Origin: Burkholderiaceae bacterium
GTDB lineage: Bacteria > Pseudomonadota > Gammaproteobacteria > Burkholderiales > Burkholderiaceae_F
Direction of reading: 5' to 3'
NCBI GenBank assembly: GCA_035429805.1
Contig: DAOMFL010000003.1
Span: 7,677-71,676, forward strand
Length of the DNA stretch: 64,000 nucleotides
Under the pieces are notes generated by a model. It was given only the letters and a program-made list of their open reading frames with translations. It did no database searches and was not told the DNA's origin. The position numbers and the translations under genes were made by a program. Shown in pieces: positions 56,411 to 64,000 of the stretch (positions are counted from its first letter, which is position 1; each line of letters opens with the position of its first letter).

Positions 56411-57115
56411 ATGACGCCGCTGAGTTCGTTCGAAACCGGGTCTGCCGAGCAGTCCGGCAGCTTCCGCGGTGCGGTTCGGGCGACGATGTGGCCGACGCGT
56501 TCGCTGGTTTCGAAGGAACGCTGGTTCGATGAGCTGTACGTGTGGACCGAGGGTGGCAGCGCCAGCACGACCCAGCGCGCGCGCATCCAGCTCGAGGCGA
56601 TCAAGGACGCCTTCCTTTGGCTGGAGTACGACCTCATCGAACGGATCGGCGTGACGATCTCGTTCGGAACGATCGAGCGCGCGATCGATCCGCTGACGGC
56701 CCTGTTCGAAGACAACGTGCTGCTGGCGCACCGCCTGTATGTGCTCGTCAGGGGAGCGCCGCAGCGACTGCGCTCGCGCTACCGGCTGCGCGGATTCGCC
56801 GACATGCTGCGCGGCCTGAAGATTGCCGTCGGCTACCGGCTGACGGCGCCGCGAGTCAGCATGGAACTGAGCGGCGTCGACCTGGTGCAGCCGACATTCG
56901 CGAAAGTCCTTGCACCGCCCACTGCACGCGCCGAAACCTGGAGCGACCTCGCGCTCGAAGTGCGGGCGCTGGGACTGGACACACGATCGACGATCGTCGG
57001 CGCTGTCGAGACACGACCCCAGCGCGACAGCGCAGTCAATGCGGGCTTTGAACTGGCACAGGGCCGTGCCGTGCGCCAGCCTTATGCTCCGCCCCCATTA
57101 CCAACAAAAAGCTGA
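56411..57115 (+). CDS. Degenerate EAL-like domain protein (stand-alone, catalytic residues not conserved)
   Basis: 234 aa. Collinear with EAL landmarks at correct spacing but mutated: DELYVW for EALxRW, VTISFG for VNLS, VLVRG for ExxE, VGYR for DDFG, FAKV for KID, GAVE for EGVE. QG is retained. Confidence 0.55.
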   Translation: MTPLSSFETGSAEQSGSFRGAVRATMWPTRSLVSKERWFDELYVWTEGGSASTTQRARIQLEAIKDAFLWLEYDLIERIGVTISFGTIERAIDPLTALFEDNVLLAHRLYVLVRGAPQRLRSRYRLRGFADMLRGLKIAVGYRLTAPRVSMELSGVDLVQPTFAKVLAPPTARAETWSDLALEVRALGLDTRSTIVGAVETRPQRDSAVNAGFELAQGRAVRQPYAPPPLPTKS

Positions 57116-57189
57116 CACCGAGCTTGGCTGTGACGACCGATTTGGCAGAAAATTCAAGGACGTTCGCGACCCAGGAGCGCGAACCTGCC

Positions 57190-57921
57190 ATGGCCGTCCC
57201 CGAACCACGCCCCGAACTCGGTACGCATCAGGTCGAACTCGACCCCACCGTCGATCCGCTGAGCCGCTTTGGCTCACGCGTTCGCGCGCTGGTGTGGCCG
57301 ACGCGCACGCTGGTGGGGGCCGAACGCTGGTTCGACGAGCTCTACGTCTGGACCGCCGATTTCGAGCCGGACCGCTCGCTGCGCGCGCAGATCCAGCTGG
57401 CCGCGCTGGAACACGCCTTCATCATGCTCGAGCACGAGCGCGTCGAGCGCGTCGCCGTCACGATTTCTTTCGGTTCGGTCGAACGCTCGCTCGAGGCATT
57501 GGTGCGCGCTCTCGACTCTCATCGCCTGACTGCGCACCGGCTGTCTGTACTGCTGCGCGGCGCGATGGAACGGATGCGCTGGCCGTACCGCGTGCGCGAG
57601 TTCATCGATCTGCTGCGCAGCTACCAGGTGCCGGTCGGATACCGCTTCGCGGAACCGCGCGCCAGCATGGAAATGAGCGCGATCGACTTCGTCGCGCCCG
57701 ACTTCGCCAAGATGCTGGCCCCGATCTCCGTGCGCGAAGAGACCTGGTTCGAGATGTCTCGCGAAGTGAACGCCCTCGGCCTCACGCGTGAGACCTTCGT
57801 GCTGGCTGGCATCGAGCGCGAAGAACAACTCAGGCTCGCCAAGCAGACCGGCTTCGTGCTGGGCCAGGGCCGGGCGCTGAAGAAGCCCTACTTTCCGCCA
57901 CGGGTGATGCGGCCGCGCTGA
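57190..57921 (+). CDS. Degenerate EAL-like domain protein, paralogue of 56411..57115
   Basis: 243 aa from ATG 57190 (AGGAG RBS; TTG 57124 alternative). Roughly half of positions are identical to the upstream gene, with the same degenerate motifs (DELYVW, VTISFG, VGYR, FAKM, AGIE, QG). Confidence 0.55.
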   Translation: MAVPEPRPELGTHQVELDPTVDPLSRFGSRVRALVWPTRTLVGAERWFDELYVWTADFEPDRSLRAQIQLAALEHAFIMLEHERVERVAVTISFGSVERSLEALVRALDSHRLTAHRLSVLLRGAMERMRWPYRVREFIDLLRSYQVPVGYRFAEPRASMEMSAIDFVAPDFAKMLAPISVREETWFEMSREVNALGLTRETFVLAGIEREEQLRLAKQTGFVLGQGRALKKPYFPPRVMRPR

Positions 57922-58160: not shown

Positions 58161-58724
58161 ATGAAACTGACTCGCTTCACACTTGCTGTCGTAGCAGCCG
58201 CGGCGACCGCTGTTCCGCTGGCGGCACACGCGGCGTCCAGTTCTCAAACGGGCGCAGGCTCGATCAACACAACGGTAAATCTCAATTTCAGCGTCACGAT
58301 TCCGCGTTACATCTTCCTGCGGGTCGGAAGCGCAGCCAGCCTCGATACGCTGACTTATGCGCCCACGGTAGCGCAGATGCTGGCATCGACCCCTGTTCAG
58401 GCGACCGGTGGCGACACCGGTGGCGGCTCCGACGTCACTTACCAGGTCTTCGGCAACGCCGGCAACATGACGCTCGCGGCATCGAACCTGACGCAACTCA
58501 CGTCGGGGGGCAACAACATCCCGAGTTCGACCCTGTCAGTCACGACACAGGCGGGCAGCGTGACGGCTCCCGCATTCAATGGCAGCACGGCGCTGACAGC
58601 GAGCGCGGCCGGCATTGTCAATCAGACGGGCTCCTGGCGCTACGTGTGGACCAACCCGGCGGCGACGGTGTATGCCGCCGGTACTTACACGGGAACGGTC
58701 ACCTACACGCTGTCTGCGCCGTAA
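58161..58724 (+). CDS. Secreted pilin-like subunit 1 (candidate major subunit)
   Basis: 187 aa, AGGAAGG RBS, signal peptide ...LAAHA|AS. Alternating N-terminal strand TVNLNFSVTI; C-terminus GSWRYVWTNPAATVYAAGTYTGTVTYTLSAP. Thr/Ser/Gly/Ala-rich with no Cys. Confidence 0.6.
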   Translation: MKLTRFTLAVVAAAATAVPLAAHAASSSQTGAGSINTTVNLNFSVTIPRYIFLRVGSAASLDTLTYAPTVAQMLASTPVQATGGDTGGGSDVTYQVFGNAGNMTLAASNLTQLTSGGNNIPSSTLSVTTQAGSVTAPAFNGSTALTASAAGIVNQTGSWRYVWTNPAATVYAAGTYTGTVTYTLSAP

Positions 58725-58777
58725 ACGGCCAACGCGCCAGGCGCTCTTTGCGGCGGCCGCTGCCGCAGGAAATTCGG

Positions 58778-58808
58778 GCATCGGCCGGCGTGATCCGCCG
58801 GCCGATGC
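58778..58808 (+). promoter_or_regulatory. 13-bp perfect stem-loop after subunit gene 1 (possible attenuator or mRNA-stability element)
   Basis: GCATCGGCCGGCG-TGATC-CGCCGGCCGATGC followed by ATTT. Located in the 120-nt gap between subunit genes 1 and 2. Confidence 0.5.
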
Positions 58809-58844
58809 ATTTGCAGACCCAGGAAGACTTTCGCCAGCATCGTC

Positions 58845-59417
58845 ATGCCAAACCGCTTCGCATCACGTGTCCTCGCGATCGCAGCATTGCTGCTCGCGGG
58901 TCCGTGCGCGCACGCGGCGTCCAATACCGCAAGTGCCGCTTCGGGCACGCTGTCGACGTCGGTCAACCTGCAGTTCAGCATCACGATCCCACGCTTCGTT
59001 TTCCTTAGAGTGGGTGCAGCGGCATCGGTCAACACGCTGACCTACGCGCCGACGGCCGCACAGATGGCGTCAGGCACCGGAGTGCTCGCGACGGGAGGTG
59101 ACACAGGGGCCGGCAACTCCGATGTCACGGTGCAGGTCACCGGAAACACCGGGAACGTGACACTGACCGCCGTGACCGGCAACCCGAACCTCGTGAGCGG
59201 CGGCAACACCATGCCCTGGTCGACCCTGACGGCGACCAGCCCGACCGGTTCGATCACGGCACCGCCTTTCAACGCAGGCAGCACCGTCCTCACCGCCGTG
59301 GGCGGTGTCGTCAACCAGACCGGCTCCTGGCGCTACACGTGGACCAACCCGCCGAGCACCGTCTACGCGGCCGGAACCTATTCCGGCACGGTGACCTACA
59401 CTGCCGCCGCGCCTTAG
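58845..59417 (+). CDS. Secreted pilin-like subunit 2 (paralogue)
   Basis: 190 aa, signal peptide ...PCAHA|AS. SVNLQFSITI strand; C-terminus GSWRYTWTNPPSTVYAAGTYSGTVTYTAAAP. More than half of positions match subunit 1 by eye. Confidence 0.6.
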   Translation: MPNRFASRVLAIAALLLAGPCAHAASNTASAASGTLSTSVNLQFSITIPRFVFLRVGAAASVNTLTYAPTAAQMASGTGVLATGGDTGAGNSDVTVQVTGNTGNVTLTAVTGNPNLVSGGNTMPWSTLTATSPTGSITAPPFNAGSTVLTAVGGVVNQTGSWRYTWTNPPSTVYAAGTYSGTVTYTAAAP

Positions 59418-59427
59418 GCCGCGACTC

Positions 59428-60099
59428 ATGGTGAATCCGGTGGGGACCGAATTCAAGCGACGACTTCTGCTCGTATACGCGGCGGCAGCTTGTGCAGCGG
59501 CGCTTGTCCTCGTTCCCCCTCCCGCGGAGGCCTACACGGTCAACATCACCGCCGGGTCCCGCACCTTGTACTTGCAGGTCGGCGTTGGCACGTTCACAGG
59601 CACTCTCCAGGGCGGCGGCACTCCCGGCGTGAACGCGACGGTCAACGTCGTGTCAGTGAATGTTCCCGCGGCGCAGGTCGGCACCGGCGCGGCACAGGCG
59701 ATGACGACCAACAGCACGGCAGCCAACAGTTTCTGGGACAACTTCGCCTTTTGCAACCCGCCTGCGCAACTCTACGTCGGGGGTTTCTATCGCGTGCCGA
59801 GCGGCGCTGGTGCCGGCGCCGGTGCGACGCTCACCGCCAACGTTCCAGCGACTCTCAGCAACGGCAGTGGCGGCACCATTCCCTTTTCGCAGATCTCCTG
59901 GACCAGTTCCGGCAACAGCGACAGCGGTGCGCAGCCGTTCCCGGCAGGAACGTTCGTTGGAGGTTCGCTTCAGACGATCGGTACGATCGCCCGTAATCAG
60001 TGGGCGGAAAGCTGTCTGACGTTCTCATACGCCAATACGGCCGTGGTCCCTGCCGGCACGTATACGGGAACCGTGGTCTACACGCTTTCCGCACCGTGA
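59428..60099 (+). CDS. Secreted pilin-like subunit 3 (larger, divergent paralogue with two Cys)
   Basis: 223 aa, signal peptide ...PPAEA|YT. YTVNITAG/TLYLQVGVG strands, GAGAGAGA stretch, Cys in FAFCNPP and AESCLTF. C-terminus PAGTYTGTVVYTLSAP. Confidence 0.55.
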   Translation: MVNPVGTEFKRRLLLVYAAAACAAALVLVPPPAEAYTVNITAGSRTLYLQVGVGTFTGTLQGGGTPGVNATVNVVSVNVPAAQVGTGAAQAMTTNSTAANSFWDNFAFCNPPAQLYVGGFYRVPSGAGAGAGATLTANVPATLSNGSGGTIPFSQISWTSSGNSDSGAQPFPAGTFVGGSLQTIGTIARNQWAESCLTFSYANTAVVPAGTYTGTVVYTLSAP

Positions 60100-60551
60100 T
60101 GATGCGACTCGCCTTGCTGGCCTGTGCCGCCCTGACGTCGTTCGCGGCTGAGGCGGCGACCTATCGGGTCGAGGAGGCAGGGACGTTTCCACAGGAATCG
60201 ACCGCCCCGATGCGGTGGCGCCAGATTGCGCCGTCACGGGGCGGCGACAACACGGTCGAAGGCACGACGACTGTGAACGTGCGGCTCAATCTGGCCCCGT
60301 GGCAGAACCGGGTGGGACGGCTGTTCATGGTGCTGCCTGAACAACCCCTCACGCCGGTGCGCGTCAGCTGGTCGACCCAGGGTCGATTGCTTTCAGGACA
60401 GCTGGTTTCCGGGCACCGGGCGCTGGTGTATGCCGGCCCGATCACGATGCCTCTGCTGGAGGAAACGCTGGTGCTGAAGTTCGAGGCCGATGGCACCCGG
60501 CTCAACAGCGCGCAGCGGCTCCAGTTTCACTTTGAGATTGATATCGACTGA
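60099..60551 (+). CDS. Secreted 150-aa protein of unknown function in the fibre cluster
   Basis: ATG 60099 overlaps the preceding TGA (TGATG). Signal peptide ...FAAEA|AT. Beta-rich, TTTVNVRLNL strand. No shared C-terminal pilin motif. Confidence 0.5.
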   Translation: MMRLALLACAALTSFAAEAATYRVEEAGTFPQESTAPMRWRQIAPSRGGDNTVEGTTTVNVRLNLAPWQNRVGRLFMVLPEQPLTPVRVSWSTQGRLLSGQLVSGHRALVYAGPITMPLLEETLVLKFEADGTRLNSAQRLQFHFEIDID

Positions 60552-60552
60552 C

Positions 60553-61359
60553 ATGCAGGCTTCGATCATTCGCATCGTGGTGCGGGCAGCGGCCGCCATC
60601 GTCATCGGGGGCATTTCCTGCGGCGCGGCTGCGCAGGGCTTCGCGGCGCTGGTGGCGCCGCCCCGATTCGAATTGCACGCCCGACCGGGCGAGCGGTTGC
60701 GCGACGTGATCGAGATAACGAACGGCGCGAAGCAGCCTGCCCGCTATCGCTTTCGCACCGCCGACTGGACGCTGGGAGCCGACGGGCAGATCGTCGTCAT
60801 CGATCAACTGGCTCCGAACAGCTGCCGGCCCTGGGTCGCTATCGAGCGCAGCAGCGCCGAGGTGCCGCCCGGCGGCCGTCTGCGCTATCGGTTCGAGATC
60901 ACGACTCCCGCCGACGCACCCCCTGCCGAGTGCCGTTTCGCCGTGCTGATTGAGGGCGACGAACCGGCGATTGCGGGCGGCGACAATTTCAAACTGCCGG
61001 TGATGGGGCGCATCGCCATCGTCGTCTACGTCACTGTGGGAGACGCCGCGCCGCAGATTGAGATCGAGCGCTCTGGCGTGGTGACCTTCAACGGCCAGCG
61101 CACTCCCATCATCCAGGTCCGCAATACCGGAACCGCGCACGGTCGCCTGAGCGGCTTCCTGACCGGCGTTGACGCGCAGGGTCGACGCTGGGACATTTCT
61201 CCGTCGTCGCTGCCGATCCTGCCCGGCGAGTCACGCGCCATCGCGCTGTCGGCTGCCAACGACCGGAATGAGCCGGTACCGGTGCCCCTGCCAATCACCA
61301 TCCGCGGCACGCTGGAATGGACAGGGGGACGCCTGCCGTTCGAGCACCGCTTCGACTGA
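60553..61359 (+). CDS. PapD-like two-domain periplasmic chaperone candidate
   Basis: 268 aa, starts 1 nt after the previous stop. Signal peptide ...GAAAQG. Domain 1: LVAPPRFELHARPGERLRDVIEITN...ECRFAVLIEG. Domain 2: GRIAIVVYVTVG...IIQVRNTGTAHGRLSG...LPGESRAIAL. Confidence 0.5.
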   Translation: MQASIIRIVVRAAAAIVIGGISCGAAAQGFAALVAPPRFELHARPGERLRDVIEITNGAKQPARYRFRTADWTLGADGQIVVIDQLAPNSCRPWVAIERSSAEVPPGGRLRYRFEITTPADAPPAECRFAVLIEGDEPAIAGGDNFKLPVMGRIAIVVYVTVGDAAPQIEIERSGVVTFNGQRTPIIQVRNTGTAHGRLSGFLTGVDAQGRRWDISPSSLPILPGESRAIALSAANDRNEPVPVPLPITIRGTLEWTGGRLPFEHRFD

Positions 61360-61364
61360 TTTCA

Positions 61365-63317
61365 ATGCGGGCCTCCGCGGTAACGCTGCTGCTTGCAGCC
61401 ATCGCCGGGCTGTGCCCGATGACCGCACGCTCCCAGGACAAGGCGCAGGCGACGGAGGACTTGGCGCCGTCCTATCAGGATCGCCTGATCGATGACGGCA
61501 GACTCGCGATCGACCTCTGGGATGACTACGCACCGCTAAATAACACCGACGGTTTGCCACGCGGACTGAGACTCGATGGTCTCTGGTCGCAGACCCGCCG
61601 TAACGGAATCAGCACAACGCAGTCCGGACTCGGCATCGGCGCCTTCCTTGCGACGCCGCAGTACGGTTCGTTCAGCTTCGAGGGCCTGCTCACGAACGGC
61701 GAAGACACATCGATCGCCACGCTGTGGCAACGCGACATGCCTTTCGATGGCGGGTGGCGTGCCAGCAACGGCCTCGGCATGCTGAATTCGCCCGCGATCG
61801 ACCTCGTGCGGTTTCAGCCGCGCATTTTCCTCGCCACGACCCCGATGCTGGGCGCCGTCACCGACTGGCGTGGACCGCAGTCGACGCAAGTAGTCGGCGG
61901 CTTCGGCGAACCGGGCACCTACCAAGGTGCCTACATTCCACAGTTTCGCCGCCTAGGCGGTCAGCTTTCCAACCTCGGCGCGCAGCGGGCTGTGGATCCC
62001 AACTGGAGCATTGGATTCCAGTACGCCGGCGCCAACGACGTCACGAGTGGATTCCAGTTGCTGCCGAGTGCAACGCCGTTTAGCACGCGCTCGCTGTACC
62101 TGGGAACATCTCGCCAGGACGCGACAAGCCGGTTCCAGTTCAACGCGATCGAAAGCCAGAACAGTGTCACTGAGTCACGACACGGCGCCTGGTTCGACGG
62201 ATACCAGCAGAGCGGACGCCTGGCGCAGTCGTTCGGGCTGTTCTACCTCGATCCCACTCTGGCCTGGGGCAACCAGCCGGTGGCGAACGACATGCGCGGC
62301 GGCTACTACCGCCTCTTTTTCGCCAGCATGCGCTGGCAGTGGGATGCCGGCGCCGACTACGTCGCGCCCTTGCGCAACGAGTCGGGGTCCGCAACAACCT
62401 TTCTCAACGGCAGCCTGCGCCACCAGTTGCTGAGTGACGTCAGCGCCGGGGTTGGCGCCAATGTCCGACTGGCCGACTCCACGGCGTGGCAGGGGTTCGC
62501 CTACATCGAGCGGGTCGATCGGCTGATGACTGGGCGCGTGCAGCTGAACCAGGCAGAAGACGGCGCCCGCCGCGAATCGCTGGTCACATTCAACCAGACC
62601 TGGAGCATGCCGGTGGGCTCACGGCTGAACACGACGGTCGGTGCGGGTCGCTATCACGGCGACCAGGTTGCCCCCTCGAACCAGCTGATGCTCGCCGCTT
62701 ACGGAGGCGGCGACATCGCCCGCAACCTGGCGCTCGATCTGAACGTGCAATGGACCCGCTGGTACGACGTCACAGCTGAGCCGACGAGCACTACCGGCAG
62801 CCTTGTAATGACGTGGAGCATCCTGCCGCAACTGCGGCTCATCGCGACCGCCTACCGCAGCCAGGCGACAGCACGGCAGCCGCTCACTGTCACGTCACCG
62901 CTCAATCCGACGATTCCTCTGACAAACACAAGCCTCAACGACACCGGCGCATTCCTGGTCCTGCGGTTCGAGTCCCGCGCGGGCAGCCTTGGAGGTCCGC
63001 TCGGCGGCCCGCCGGGCGCCGGCGCCGGCCGCGTCCTCGGTAAGGTGTTCCTCGACACCAACGACAGCGGCCGACTCGAGGCCGGGGAACAGGGAGCGGC
63101 CAACGTGACCGTGGTTCTCGATGGCCGCTACACGACGCGCACTGACGGAGAAGGCCGCTTCGAGTTTCCGGCCGTCGCATCCGGCCGGCATCAGATCACG
63201 GTCGTGCCCGACAATCTTCCGCTGCCCTGGGTGCTGGCCAATGACGGGCGCTTCGAAGTCGACGTCCCGGTTCGTGACTCGGTGAGCGTCGACATCCCGG
63301 CTCGACGCATGCGCTGA
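61365..63317 (+). CDS. Large outer-membrane beta-barrel with Gly/Pro linker and a C-terminal Cna-B/carboxypeptidase-regulatory-like beta-sandwich domain
   Basis: 650 aa from ATG 61365. Signal peptide, 20 or more amphipathic strands ending in aromatic residues, ...GAFLVLRF, linker GSLGGPLGGPPGAGAG, then GKVFLDTNDSGRLEAGEQGAANVTVVLDGRYTTRTDGEGRFEFPAVASGRHQITV. Confidence 0.6.
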   Translation: MRASAVTLLLAAIAGLCPMTARSQDKAQATEDLAPSYQDRLIDDGRLAIDLWDDYAPLNNTDGLPRGLRLDGLWSQTRRNGISTTQSGLGIGAFLATPQYGSFSFEGLLTNGEDTSIATLWQRDMPFDGGWRASNGLGMLNSPAIDLVRFQPRIFLATTPMLGAVTDWRGPQSTQVVGGFGEPGTYQGAYIPQFRRLGGQLSNLGAQRAVDPNWSIGFQYAGANDVTSGFQLLPSATPFSTRSLYLGTSRQDATSRFQFNAIESQNSVTESRHGAWFDGYQQSGRLAQSFGLFYLDPTLAWGNQPVANDMRGGYYRLFFASMRWQWDAGADYVAPLRNESGSATTFLNGSLRHQLLSDVSAGVGANVRLADSTAWQGFAYIERVDRLMTGRVQLNQAEDGARRESLVTFNQTWSMPVGSRLNTTVGAGRYHGDQVAPSNQLMLAAYGGGDIARNLALDLNVQWTRWYDVTAEPTSTTGSLVMTWSILPQLRLIATAYRSQATARQPLTVTSPLNPTIPLTNTSLNDTGAFLVLRFESRAGSLGGPLGGPPGAGAGRVLGKVFLDTNDSGRLEAGEQGAANVTVVLDGRYTTRTDGEGRFEFPAVASGRHQITVVPDNLPLPWVLANDGRFEVDVPVRDSVSVDIPARRMR

Positions 63318-63323
63318 GCCAGG

Positions 63324-64000
63324 TCATGCCGCCCACGGTCGCGCGGCGGCGTGCACAGCCCGCAGGTGCCTTTCGATCTCCCGGGTGTCGACACCCTGGC
63401 GGACCGCGATGCGCTCGCGCGCCAGGGCACTCAGCCCGGGCGCGTTGGTCAGCTGTTCAAGGAGCCCGGCCGCCACCGACAGGTCATTGAGCTCGCCCTG
63501 GAGGTCCTGCAGGCGCGCCAGCGCCTCGACATATCGTTGCGTCGCTTCCCGAGGCAGTGCGACCGAGCACACATCGAGTGCGTAGCGCAGCCGCTTGGCG
63601 AGGATGCGCAGCCGGTGCCGTTCTTCGGAAGACAGCGTCGCGAAGTCCTCAGCGCCGGCAAACAGCCGCCTGTGCGCTCTGGCCAGTGCGCGCGCGGCAA
63701 GCTTCCGCAGCGTGCGGCCCGCGGGCGGCGGCGTCATCATCCATGCCTGCAATCGCAGCGCGAGCCGCGCGTAGCGAGCCGTTGCCAGTGCCGCGAGCAC
63801 CCGGGACCGCGCGGCTTCGCGCTGCACCGCGGCCTGCCGGAGCATCTGCTTCGTGTCGCCATCGAGCGCGGGCGGCGTGCCGGAGAGCAGCATCGGCAGC
63901 GTCTGCGTCAGCAGCACATCGGCGTCGCGCGCGGCACCGAGCAGCCGCGCGGCCCAGCGGAGTTCGGCGGCGAGCGTCTTCGGAAAGTCGCGGTGCCTGC
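63324..64000 (-). CDS. CHAD-domain protein, C-terminal part (5' end beyond the window)
   Basis: The frame stays open to the window edge (...RHRDFPKTLAAELRWAARLLGAARDADVLLTQ...). CHAD-like repeats HRLRILAKRLRYALD. The listed M at 63917 is an internal GTG. Confidence 0.7.
   Translation of the reverse strand, partial: RHRDFPKTLAAELRWAARLLGAARDADVLLTQTLPMLLSGTPPALDGDTKQMLRQAAVQREAARSRVLAALATARYARLALRLQAWMMTPPPAGRTLRKLAARALARAHRRLFAGAEDFATLSSEERHRLRILAKRLRYALDVCSVALPREATQRYVEALARLQDLQGELNDLSVAAGLLEQLTNAPGLSALARERIAVRQGVDTREIERHLRAVHAAARPWAA

Follow-up and report, generated by a model that had tools for sequence, protein, structure and literature searches.

How can a bacterium whose genome, searched in all six frames, contains no canonical usher (Pfam PF00577) bring a series of secreted subunits, encoded together with a chaperone-like periplasmic protein, across its outer membrane (OM)? 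This question is raised by a stretch of 64,000 nucleotides (nt) from a Burkholderiaceae bacterium (contig DAOMFL010000003.1 of assembly GCA_035429805.1), called the window in what follows, which carries a six-gene cassette ending with the gene of an OM beta-barrel protein. We think that this barrel protein is probably the export and assembly pore, i.e. a functional analogue of the ushers, of an undescribed chaperone-dependent pathway for surface fibres. What leads to an usher-like role is the synteny of the cassette together with its tight gene spacing, the homology with PapD of the neighbouring protein, which has two immunoglobulin (Ig)-like domains, and the position of the ushers at the top of the Foldseek structural matches. 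Taken as a whole, the cassette most likely encodes a pilus-like fibre system, restricted to uncultured soil proteobacteria, that is like the chaperone-usher pili in logic, not in sequence. An earlier examination of the DNA, made from its letters and translations (the sequence-only reading), had spoken of a 'minimal or convergent usher'. The same observations support this suggestion, and the honest wording is 'convergent or very anciently diverged', since homology with the ushers is undetectable.

Conservation and distribution of the cassette

Synteny was assessed by calling open reading frames (ORFs) in all the fetched loci and matching them to the proteins of the window. The order is the same in 80 out of 80 genome loci, namely one to three major subunits, the minor subunit, a 150-aa (amino-acid) protein, the chaperone and the barrel protein, and it is also kept in every locus that is long enough, including those found through the chaperone. 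Spacing within the cassette is tight, the stops and starts either overlapping or lying 1-5 nt apart. In the window, the genes of the minor subunit and of the 150-aa protein overlap by 1 nt (TGATG), a gap of 1 nt separates the latter from the chaperone gene, and 5 nt separate the chaperone gene from the barrel gene; the sole sizeable intergenic gap of the cassette is the one after the first major-subunit gene. This synteny spans barrel proteins that are mostly 37-68% identical to that of the window, and as little as 33% in one locus (L002), where the minor type is the sole subunit present. Measured against the window proteins, the major subunits show the lowest identities (30-45% in most loci) and the minor subunit the highest (50-79%). 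Such fast divergence of the major subunits compared with the machinery is as expected for exposed fibre subunits, and the combination of variable major subunits with a conserved minor one is what one would expect if the former made up an exposed shaft and the latter a conserved adaptor or tip.

That the barrel ORF is not a chance one follows from the number of its relatives. A word-indexed search of a database clustered at 90% returned 56 homologues, all of them annotated as 'hypothetical', and with a barrel-only profile 606 of 1.84 billion cluster representatives were retrieved at E<=1e-3. For the best 150 of these 606 the match is to the barrel profile only, and members of other families did not appear among them; most of the 150 cover nearly the whole barrel, the remainder being shorter partial sequences. 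Copies of the gene are present in 206 of 185,579 species genomes (GTDB contigs, one genome per species). The best 80 carriers belong to the Burkholderiaceae, Casimicrobiaceae, Steroidobacteraceae and Nevskiaceae, with one each labelled Alcaligenaceae and Dechloromonas, and the chaperone-based search recovered a locus from a metagenome-assembled genome (MAG) of Usitatibacter. About half of the species genomes in the genus of the window carry the barrel gene, which is fragmented in three of them. NCBIfam has no model for the barrel protein, and our literature searches returned no described non-canonical usher of this kind.

Architecture of the barrel protein

The barrel ORF encodes 650 aa from the ATG at 61365, and an alternative in-frame ATG upstream, at 61317, runs into the preceding gene. 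An AlphaFold2 (AF2) model built from a 33-sequence alignment (mean predicted local distance difference test score, pLDDT, 75.6; predicted TM-score, pTM, 0.67) contains 28 beta elements from aa 66 to aa 539, several short ones of which are bulged halves of one strand. Because these short elements merge, we count about 26-28 barrel strands; the number should be even, as is needed for the barrel to close with both of its ends on one side. The longest insertions outside the strands amount to 23 (aa 139-161), 20 (aa 503-522) and 12 residues, and so there is no plug-sized domain. At the N-terminus, aa 15-59 are disordered in the model, and the signal peptide is followed by only about 40 residues before the first strand begins, too few for an usher N-domain. 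In all these respects the model bears out the sequence-only reading, which had counted more than 20 strands, had seen neither an usher N-domain nor a plug and had placed a Gly/Pro linker after the barrel-closing-like GAFLVLRF; this last motif is at aa 528-535 and the linker begins at aa 540.

The tail that follows the linker is modelled as an 8-strand beta-sandwich (aa 554-648). Its proposed Cna-B/SdrD_B-like nature was found again at the profile level: it matches Pfam SdrD_B with an E-value of 7.8e-6 (26.5 bits, under the 29.7-bit cut-off) and CarboxypepD_reg with 5.9e-5, and the family profile matches the SdrD B-domain structure 10ps_A with 2.9e-5. Divergent homologues retain the tail, and one of them (P0276) exceeds the SdrD_B cut-off at 32.6 bits. 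Sub-threshold matches to this domain are all that Pfam and NCBIfam return for the proteins of the cassette. With SdrD B-repeats, Cna-B and CarboxypepD_reg domains the tail shares, besides the model matches, the loop signature D-x-N-x-x-G...E; it differs from them in being present once, at the end of an OM barrel to which it is fused, and in having a family-specific invariant PDNLPLPW.

Conservation, computed over 87 sequences, is distributed unevenly along the protein. The tail is its most conserved part, 35 of 93 positions being at least 90% conserved. Conservation of the linker is unexpectedly high (7 of 16 positions; core pattern APLGGxPGxGAG), and the short N-terminal motif reaches 6 of 16, with Y37, D39 and G45 invariant. 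The barrel wall, where roughly 10-25% of the positions pass the same threshold, stays far below these three regions. An even strand count and a very high conservation of the tail, at a time when the major subunits diverge fast, favour a periplasmic, partner-binding tail domain comparable to the C-terminal domains of ushers. From the same alignment, the linker pattern and PDNLPLPW are candidate contact sites, and the N-terminal motif is a candidate periplasmic docking peptide. The 139-161 loop, in which N141, P143, D146, L147, R149, Q151, R153 and P160 are near-invariant, is a candidate gating loop.

In three remote homologues (P0310, P0318 and P0322) the N-terminus is extended by 150-300 aa. 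A FimV/LysM-like motif, 'GYWxVxxGExLxxIA...NPxxF...L.VGxxLxLP', was seen by eye in these extensions and was set aside, having no Pfam support; if real, it would fix the N-terminus in the periplasm.

Comparison with the ushers

Ushers have a 24-stranded barrel with a plug domain of roughly 80 aa between strands 6 and 7, and an N-domain (PapC_N) of about 125 aa. What the barrel protein has in common with them (FimD, PapC and the archaic CsuD) is a large single-chain OM barrel followed by a beta-sandwich, and a gene that lies beside those of a PapD-homologous periplasmic chaperone and of several Sec-dependent subunit paralogues. In contrast, the predicted number of strands is about 26-28 instead of 24; there is no plug, since no insertion exceeds the 23 aa that separate elements 5 and 6; the N-domain is replaced by a 40-residue tail bearing a short motif; and one C-terminal domain of the SdrD_B/Cna-B type, not PapC_C, stands where ushers have two. 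The protein is also 90-360 aa shorter than the 13 ushers that we aligned (741-1012 aa), as the sequence-only reading had anticipated.

When the barrel model was searched with Foldseek, the best eight PDB matches were full-length FimD and PapC structures (E 2e-12 to 3e-9). At the sequence level PF00577 was matched neither by the window protein at E<=0.1, nor by 10 divergent members, nor by 37 barrel-only members at E<=1, and the profile comparison with the 13 ushers was not significant either. Homology with an unrelated porin or transporter family, which would have spoken against an usher-like function, did not appear: no Pfam family was matched consistently by the 37 barrel-only members. The weak alignments with ushers are collinear, residues 286-510 of the barrel being aligned with 303-554 of the usher barrel, and the tail with the usher C-terminal region. 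Since strand number, plug and N-domain all disagree, we conclude that the barrel is not assignable to the usher family, while its operon partnership is that of an usher and it appears to work like one.

The chaperone-like neighbour

The protein encoded just upstream of the barrel consists of two Ig-like domains (AF2 pLDDT 89), strand 153-162 being preceded by a disordered loop, and has more than 2900 homologues. In Foldseek, the model matched WxLIP of Enterococcus faecium at the top of the list, and CsuC, YadV, CfaA, CupB2, FimC, PapD and Caf1M besides, along its full length (E 4e-10 to 1e-7). Profile comparison by hhalign with 14 PapD-type chaperones, drawn from E. coli K-12 and three proteobacterial genomes, gave a probability of 93.6% and an E-value of 2.1e-7 over 171 columns, both domains being covered. 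In this alignment the invariant arginine R38 of PPRFE corresponds to the equivalent of PapD Arg8, and GRIAIVVYV (aa 152-160) to the PapD-type G1 donor strand. A comparison with seven WxLIP chaperones also extended over 171 columns (probability 76%, E 2.2e-5), and here the GRIAIVVYV strand is aligned with the donor strand of ElrE, which has been defined experimentally (preprint 10.64898/2026.10.17.759780). The PapD-type and WxLIP families have been found disjoint, and the WxL system has been reported as confined to Bacillota (10.64898/2026.10.17.759780); our own direct hhalign comparison of the two alignments gave no relation (P 0.08). Being related to both, while these are unrelated when compared directly, the chaperone family of the cassette thus sits between the PapD-type and the WxLIP-type. 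PF06030 is matched weakly by 8 of 36 of its members. The protein stops after the second Ig domain and has no transmembrane helix. Sequence searches of the PDB returned no meaningful match for the chaperone, for the subunits or for the 150-aa protein.

The subunits and the 150-aa protein

The subunits carry signal peptides, and the major and minor types are homologous (hhalign E 3e-28). All of the 77 aligned subunits end with ...G-T-Y-x-G-x-V-x-Y-T-(L/A)-x-x-P, the proline being the last residue. A chaperone cleft that anchors the terminal carboxylate would, we infer, need the carboxy-terminus to be fixed in this way. In the hhalign register the major subunits possess about 18 extra mature N-terminal residues, AESNFxTGAGxLTATAxVD-F, which alternate between small and hydrophobic and end with an invariant Phe; the mature N-terminus of the minor subunit begins at that Phe and is therefore without the 18-residue extension. 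The subunit that lacks an N-terminal extension is, in chaperone-usher pili, the first to go in, at the tip. By analogy, the minor subunit, which is the best conserved and contains two invariant cysteines (C109 and C196 in the 223-aa form), is a candidate tip or initiator that may be incorporated first.

The 150-aa protein, always found between the subunits and the chaperone, is strictly conserved and shows no Pfam, PDB or usher similarity. The possibility that it provides an usher N-domain or plug in trans received no backing from hhalign against the ushers (P 0.086) or from Pfam, where it had no match.

Comparison with the WxL pili

The Gram-positive WxL (Elr) pili are built from WxL pilins and a membrane-anchored DUF916/DUF3324 chaperone, WxLIP/ElrE (10.64898/2026.10.17.759780). 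The cassette resembles this system in several ways, starting with the profile relationship between the chaperones already mentioned (E 2.2e-5). The carboxy-terminus of its subunits, GTYTGRVTYTLTAP, resembles that of ElrD, AYKTTITWTLANTPA, and the alternating x-V-x-F N-terminal strand of the major subunits recalls the ElrD donor strand and the pilin pattern [S/T]-x-[G/A]-x-[V/I]-x-F. On the other hand, the WxL system has no OM component, its chaperone possesses a C-terminal transmembrane helix and its fibre is anchored by sortase, whereas here a soluble chaperone is accompanied by a dedicated barrel. The subunits do not match the Pfam WxL family (PF13731). When compared with WxL alignments by hhalign they gave weak P values of 0.003-0.02, and weaker ones with a larger WxL alignment. 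Part of the signal was an artefact of the signal peptides, as the first global comparison gave a P of 1.7e-4 and, after their removal, the values were 0.06 (global) and 0.01 (local); without these peptides, the subunit-WxL score was attained in 2 of 200 column shuffles. The subunits may, hypothetically, be homologous to WxL domains.

What weighs against an usher-like pore, and the alternatives

Several observations weigh against the usher-like interpretation. The hhalign probability of the barrel is 0.7% with 5 ushers and 8% (P 0.004, not significant) with 13; the full-length protein aligns with the 13 ushers via its C-terminal tail, at a probability of 3% (P 0.015), which is not significant either. 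The Foldseek TM-scores with ushers are low, 0.3-0.45, and MtrB does equally well (query-normalised TM-score 0.42), so the ranking reflects a 'large barrel plus sandwich' and no shared usher topology. The barrel model itself is only moderately confident, and whether there are 26 or 28 strands is uncertain. A pore of this width, having neither plug nor N-domain, would need some other means of being sealed and of selecting its substrates. In the chaperone, the equivalent of PapD Lys112 is not conserved, and the incomplete Ig fold of the subunits and donor-strand exchange are both hypothetical. Finally, the best 80 of the 206 carrier genomes are all MAGs.

Part of this evidence could also be accommodated by a true, extremely diverged usher, of common ancestry with FimD, PapC and CsuD, from which the N-domain, the plug and one of the C-terminal domains have disappeared. 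This alternative agrees with the export-pore interpretation on function and concerns the origin only. It would explain why homology with PapD is detectable in the partner chaperone, why the top Foldseek matches are ushers and why the weak hhalign signals (P 0.004 for the barrel, 0.015 for the tail) are collinear. But neither signal is significant, amphipathic barrels score in this way by pattern alone, PF00577 is matched by no member, the strand count is about 26-28 against 24 and the tail is of the SdrD_B/Cna-B type, not PapC_C; we regard such a descent as possible, with more doubt than confidence. The absence of a plug and the strictly conserved, unexplained 150-aa partner bring to mind another arrangement, in which the barrel permanently houses the 150-aa protein or the minor subunit and merely tethers the fibre, as MtrB houses MtrA and MtrC. 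MtrB and LptD (26 strands each) have barrels of similar size, and it is MtrB that gives the best query-normalised TM-score; however, both are without a C-terminal sandwich, and we found no sequence similarity between them and the barrel. In addition, MtrB_PioB was matched by none of the 37 barrel-only members, no cytochrome or LptE-type partner is encoded in the window and there are no cytochrome genes in the cassette. The subunits would still need a route through the OM, for which the cassette offers no other OM protein, and a PapD-like chaperone implies that many subunits are delivered, all of which makes a mere sheath or anchor unlikely.

A somewhat less probable arrangement still is that the linker returns through the lumen in the manner of inverse autotransporters and exposes the tail at the surface, the protein then being a small adhesin or the base of a stalk. 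Pfam describes Cna-B and SdrD_B domains as modules typical of the stalks of surface adhesins, and a 16-residue Gly/Pro linker could span the membrane. Yet the tail and the linker are conserved at 35 of 93 and 7 of 16 positions while the exposed subunits are highly variable, and an even strand number places the C-terminus in the periplasm. Moreover, CarboxypepD_reg-like domains are periplasmic in SusC-type transporters. As for a porin or substrate channel of the ordinary kind, with no more than a location beside the fibre genes, Foldseek does list Occ porins, TonB-dependent transporters and AlgE among the matches (E ~1e-6), but the TM-scores to porins are 0.14-0.25 and no porin or transporter Pfam family is consistently matched; synteny at a spacing of 0-5 nt is also seen in 80 of 80 loci, in genomes whose barrels are only 37-68% identical to that of the window. 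We consider this the least credible of the alternatives, and a very improbable one.

A possible pathway and its meaning

If the barrel is an export and assembly pore, the pathway might run as follows. The subunits would cross the inner membrane by Sec, and the soluble two-Ig chaperone would then, by homology, cap each of them with its G1 strand GRIAIVVYV. The chaperone-subunit complexes would dock on the periplasmic face of the barrel, where the tail sandwich, the linker and the N-terminal motif are, judging from their conservation, the candidate sites. The extension-less minor subunit would come first, and the major subunits would polymerise behind it, each inserting its 18-residue N-terminal extension into the preceding subunit; this step is suggested by sequence features only. 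The growing fibre would leave through the plug-less barrel of about 26-28 strands. Because such a barrel needs a gate, the 139-161 loop of 23 residues, the tail domain and the 150-aa protein are the candidates; at this point we may only speculate that one of the three closes the barrel at rest.

To our knowledge, chaperone-usher pili have been defined for decades by one usher family. A further-reaching and doubtful, though not negligible, possibility is that the barrel represents a second class of ushers, plug-less, with about 26-28 strands and one Cna-B-like periplasmic domain, and perhaps with a pore gated in trans by the 150-aa protein. Its donor-strand pathway would be the diderm counterpart of the WxL (Elr) pilus, and both would be forms of one ancient pathway equipped with different envelope-crossing devices; it is the chaperone family, linking the PapD-type and the WxLIP-type, that suggests one ancient chaperone-guided donor-strand pathway. 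Already on the export-pore interpretation, a conserved cassette that couples the chaperone and subunit logic to a barrel of unrelated sequence would show that the OM step can be solved by a different, simpler architecture, having no plug, no N-domain and one tail domain, and nature would have carried out an experiment on which features of ushers are essential. Fibre biogenesis would also extend to abundant uncultured soil Burkholderiales and Steroidobacterales. The relationship of the chaperone to both PapD-type and WxLIP proteins makes a common origin of the Gram-negative and Gram-positive donor-strand pili directly testable, and this bridging position gives the whole system considerable interest.

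Layout of the locus and its surroundings

Table 1. Features of the cassette and of the barrel protein (positions in the window)
Feature	Position	Strand	Basis
Six-gene cassette, compact run	58161-63317	+ (all genes)	ORF list of the window
Major-type subunit 1, 187 aa	58161..58724	+	alignment
Perfect 13-bp GC-rich hairpin, AUUU next, 3' of the first major-subunit gene	58778..58808	+	RNA fold
Major-type subunit 2, 190 aa	58845..59417	+	alignment
Minor subunit (sub3), 223 aa	59428..60099	+	alignment, hhalign against the major subunits
150-aa secreted protein, unrecognised fold	60099..60551	+	synteny
Chaperone-like periplasmic protein with two Ig domains, 268 aa	60553..61359	+	AF2, Foldseek, hhalign
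OM barrel protein, 650 aa, putative usher analogue, last in the cassette	61365..63317	+	ORF, AF2, homologues
Signal peptide, ~aa 1-23, no lipobox	61365..61433	+	sequence reading, AF2 N-terminal helix
N-terminal motif Y-Q/E-D-R-L-I-x-G-G-x-L-x-P-D within a variable, disordered tail	61473..61520	+	conservation, pLDDT <50
Beta-barrel, ~26-28 strands, aa 66-539	61560..62981	+	DSSP of the AF2 model, Foldseek
23-aa loop NSPxIDLxRFQPRxFLPTxPMLG between strands 5 and 6, largest barrel insertion	61785..61853	+	low pLDDT, alignment
Gly/Pro linker GSLGGPLGGPPGAGAG, aa 540-555	62982..63029	+	conservation, pLDDT dip
C-terminal SdrD_B/Cna-B/CarboxypepD_reg-like beta-sandwich with invariant PDNLPLPW	63030..63308	+	Pfam, PDB profile match

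Four copies of the barrel gene are broken into several pieces by splits or frameshifts and contain TGA stops, three in genomes of the same genus (G001:C16:57955-59938, G005:C8:18255-20123 and G010:C13:246008-247999) and one in another MAG (L086:5887-7876); either gene decay or errors in MAG assembly may account for them.

In a related contig (L001:1-4623), the cassette is preceded by the genes of two proteins, of 1623 and 509 aa, that have weak CLIPPER/DUF7933 matches. They may be large proteins of the adhesin or tip kind, and neither has an equivalent in the window. Downstream of the cassette, a CHAD-domain gene (63324-63998, minus strand; E 4.6e-38) converges on the barrel gene, their stop codons being 6 bp apart, and this 6-bp interval contains no terminator-like structure. 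Upstream, at 56411-57921, lie the genes of two paralogous degenerate EAL-like proteins. Homologues of these (64-89% identical) flank the cassette in four Burkholderiaceae loci only (L001, L019, L021 and L022), and in L001 they sit on the other side and on the other strand of the cassette; flanking only four loci, the pair is accessory, lineage-specific and outside the core. Within the cassette, the hairpin downstream of the first major-subunit gene could be an attenuator or an element that stabilises the mRNA.

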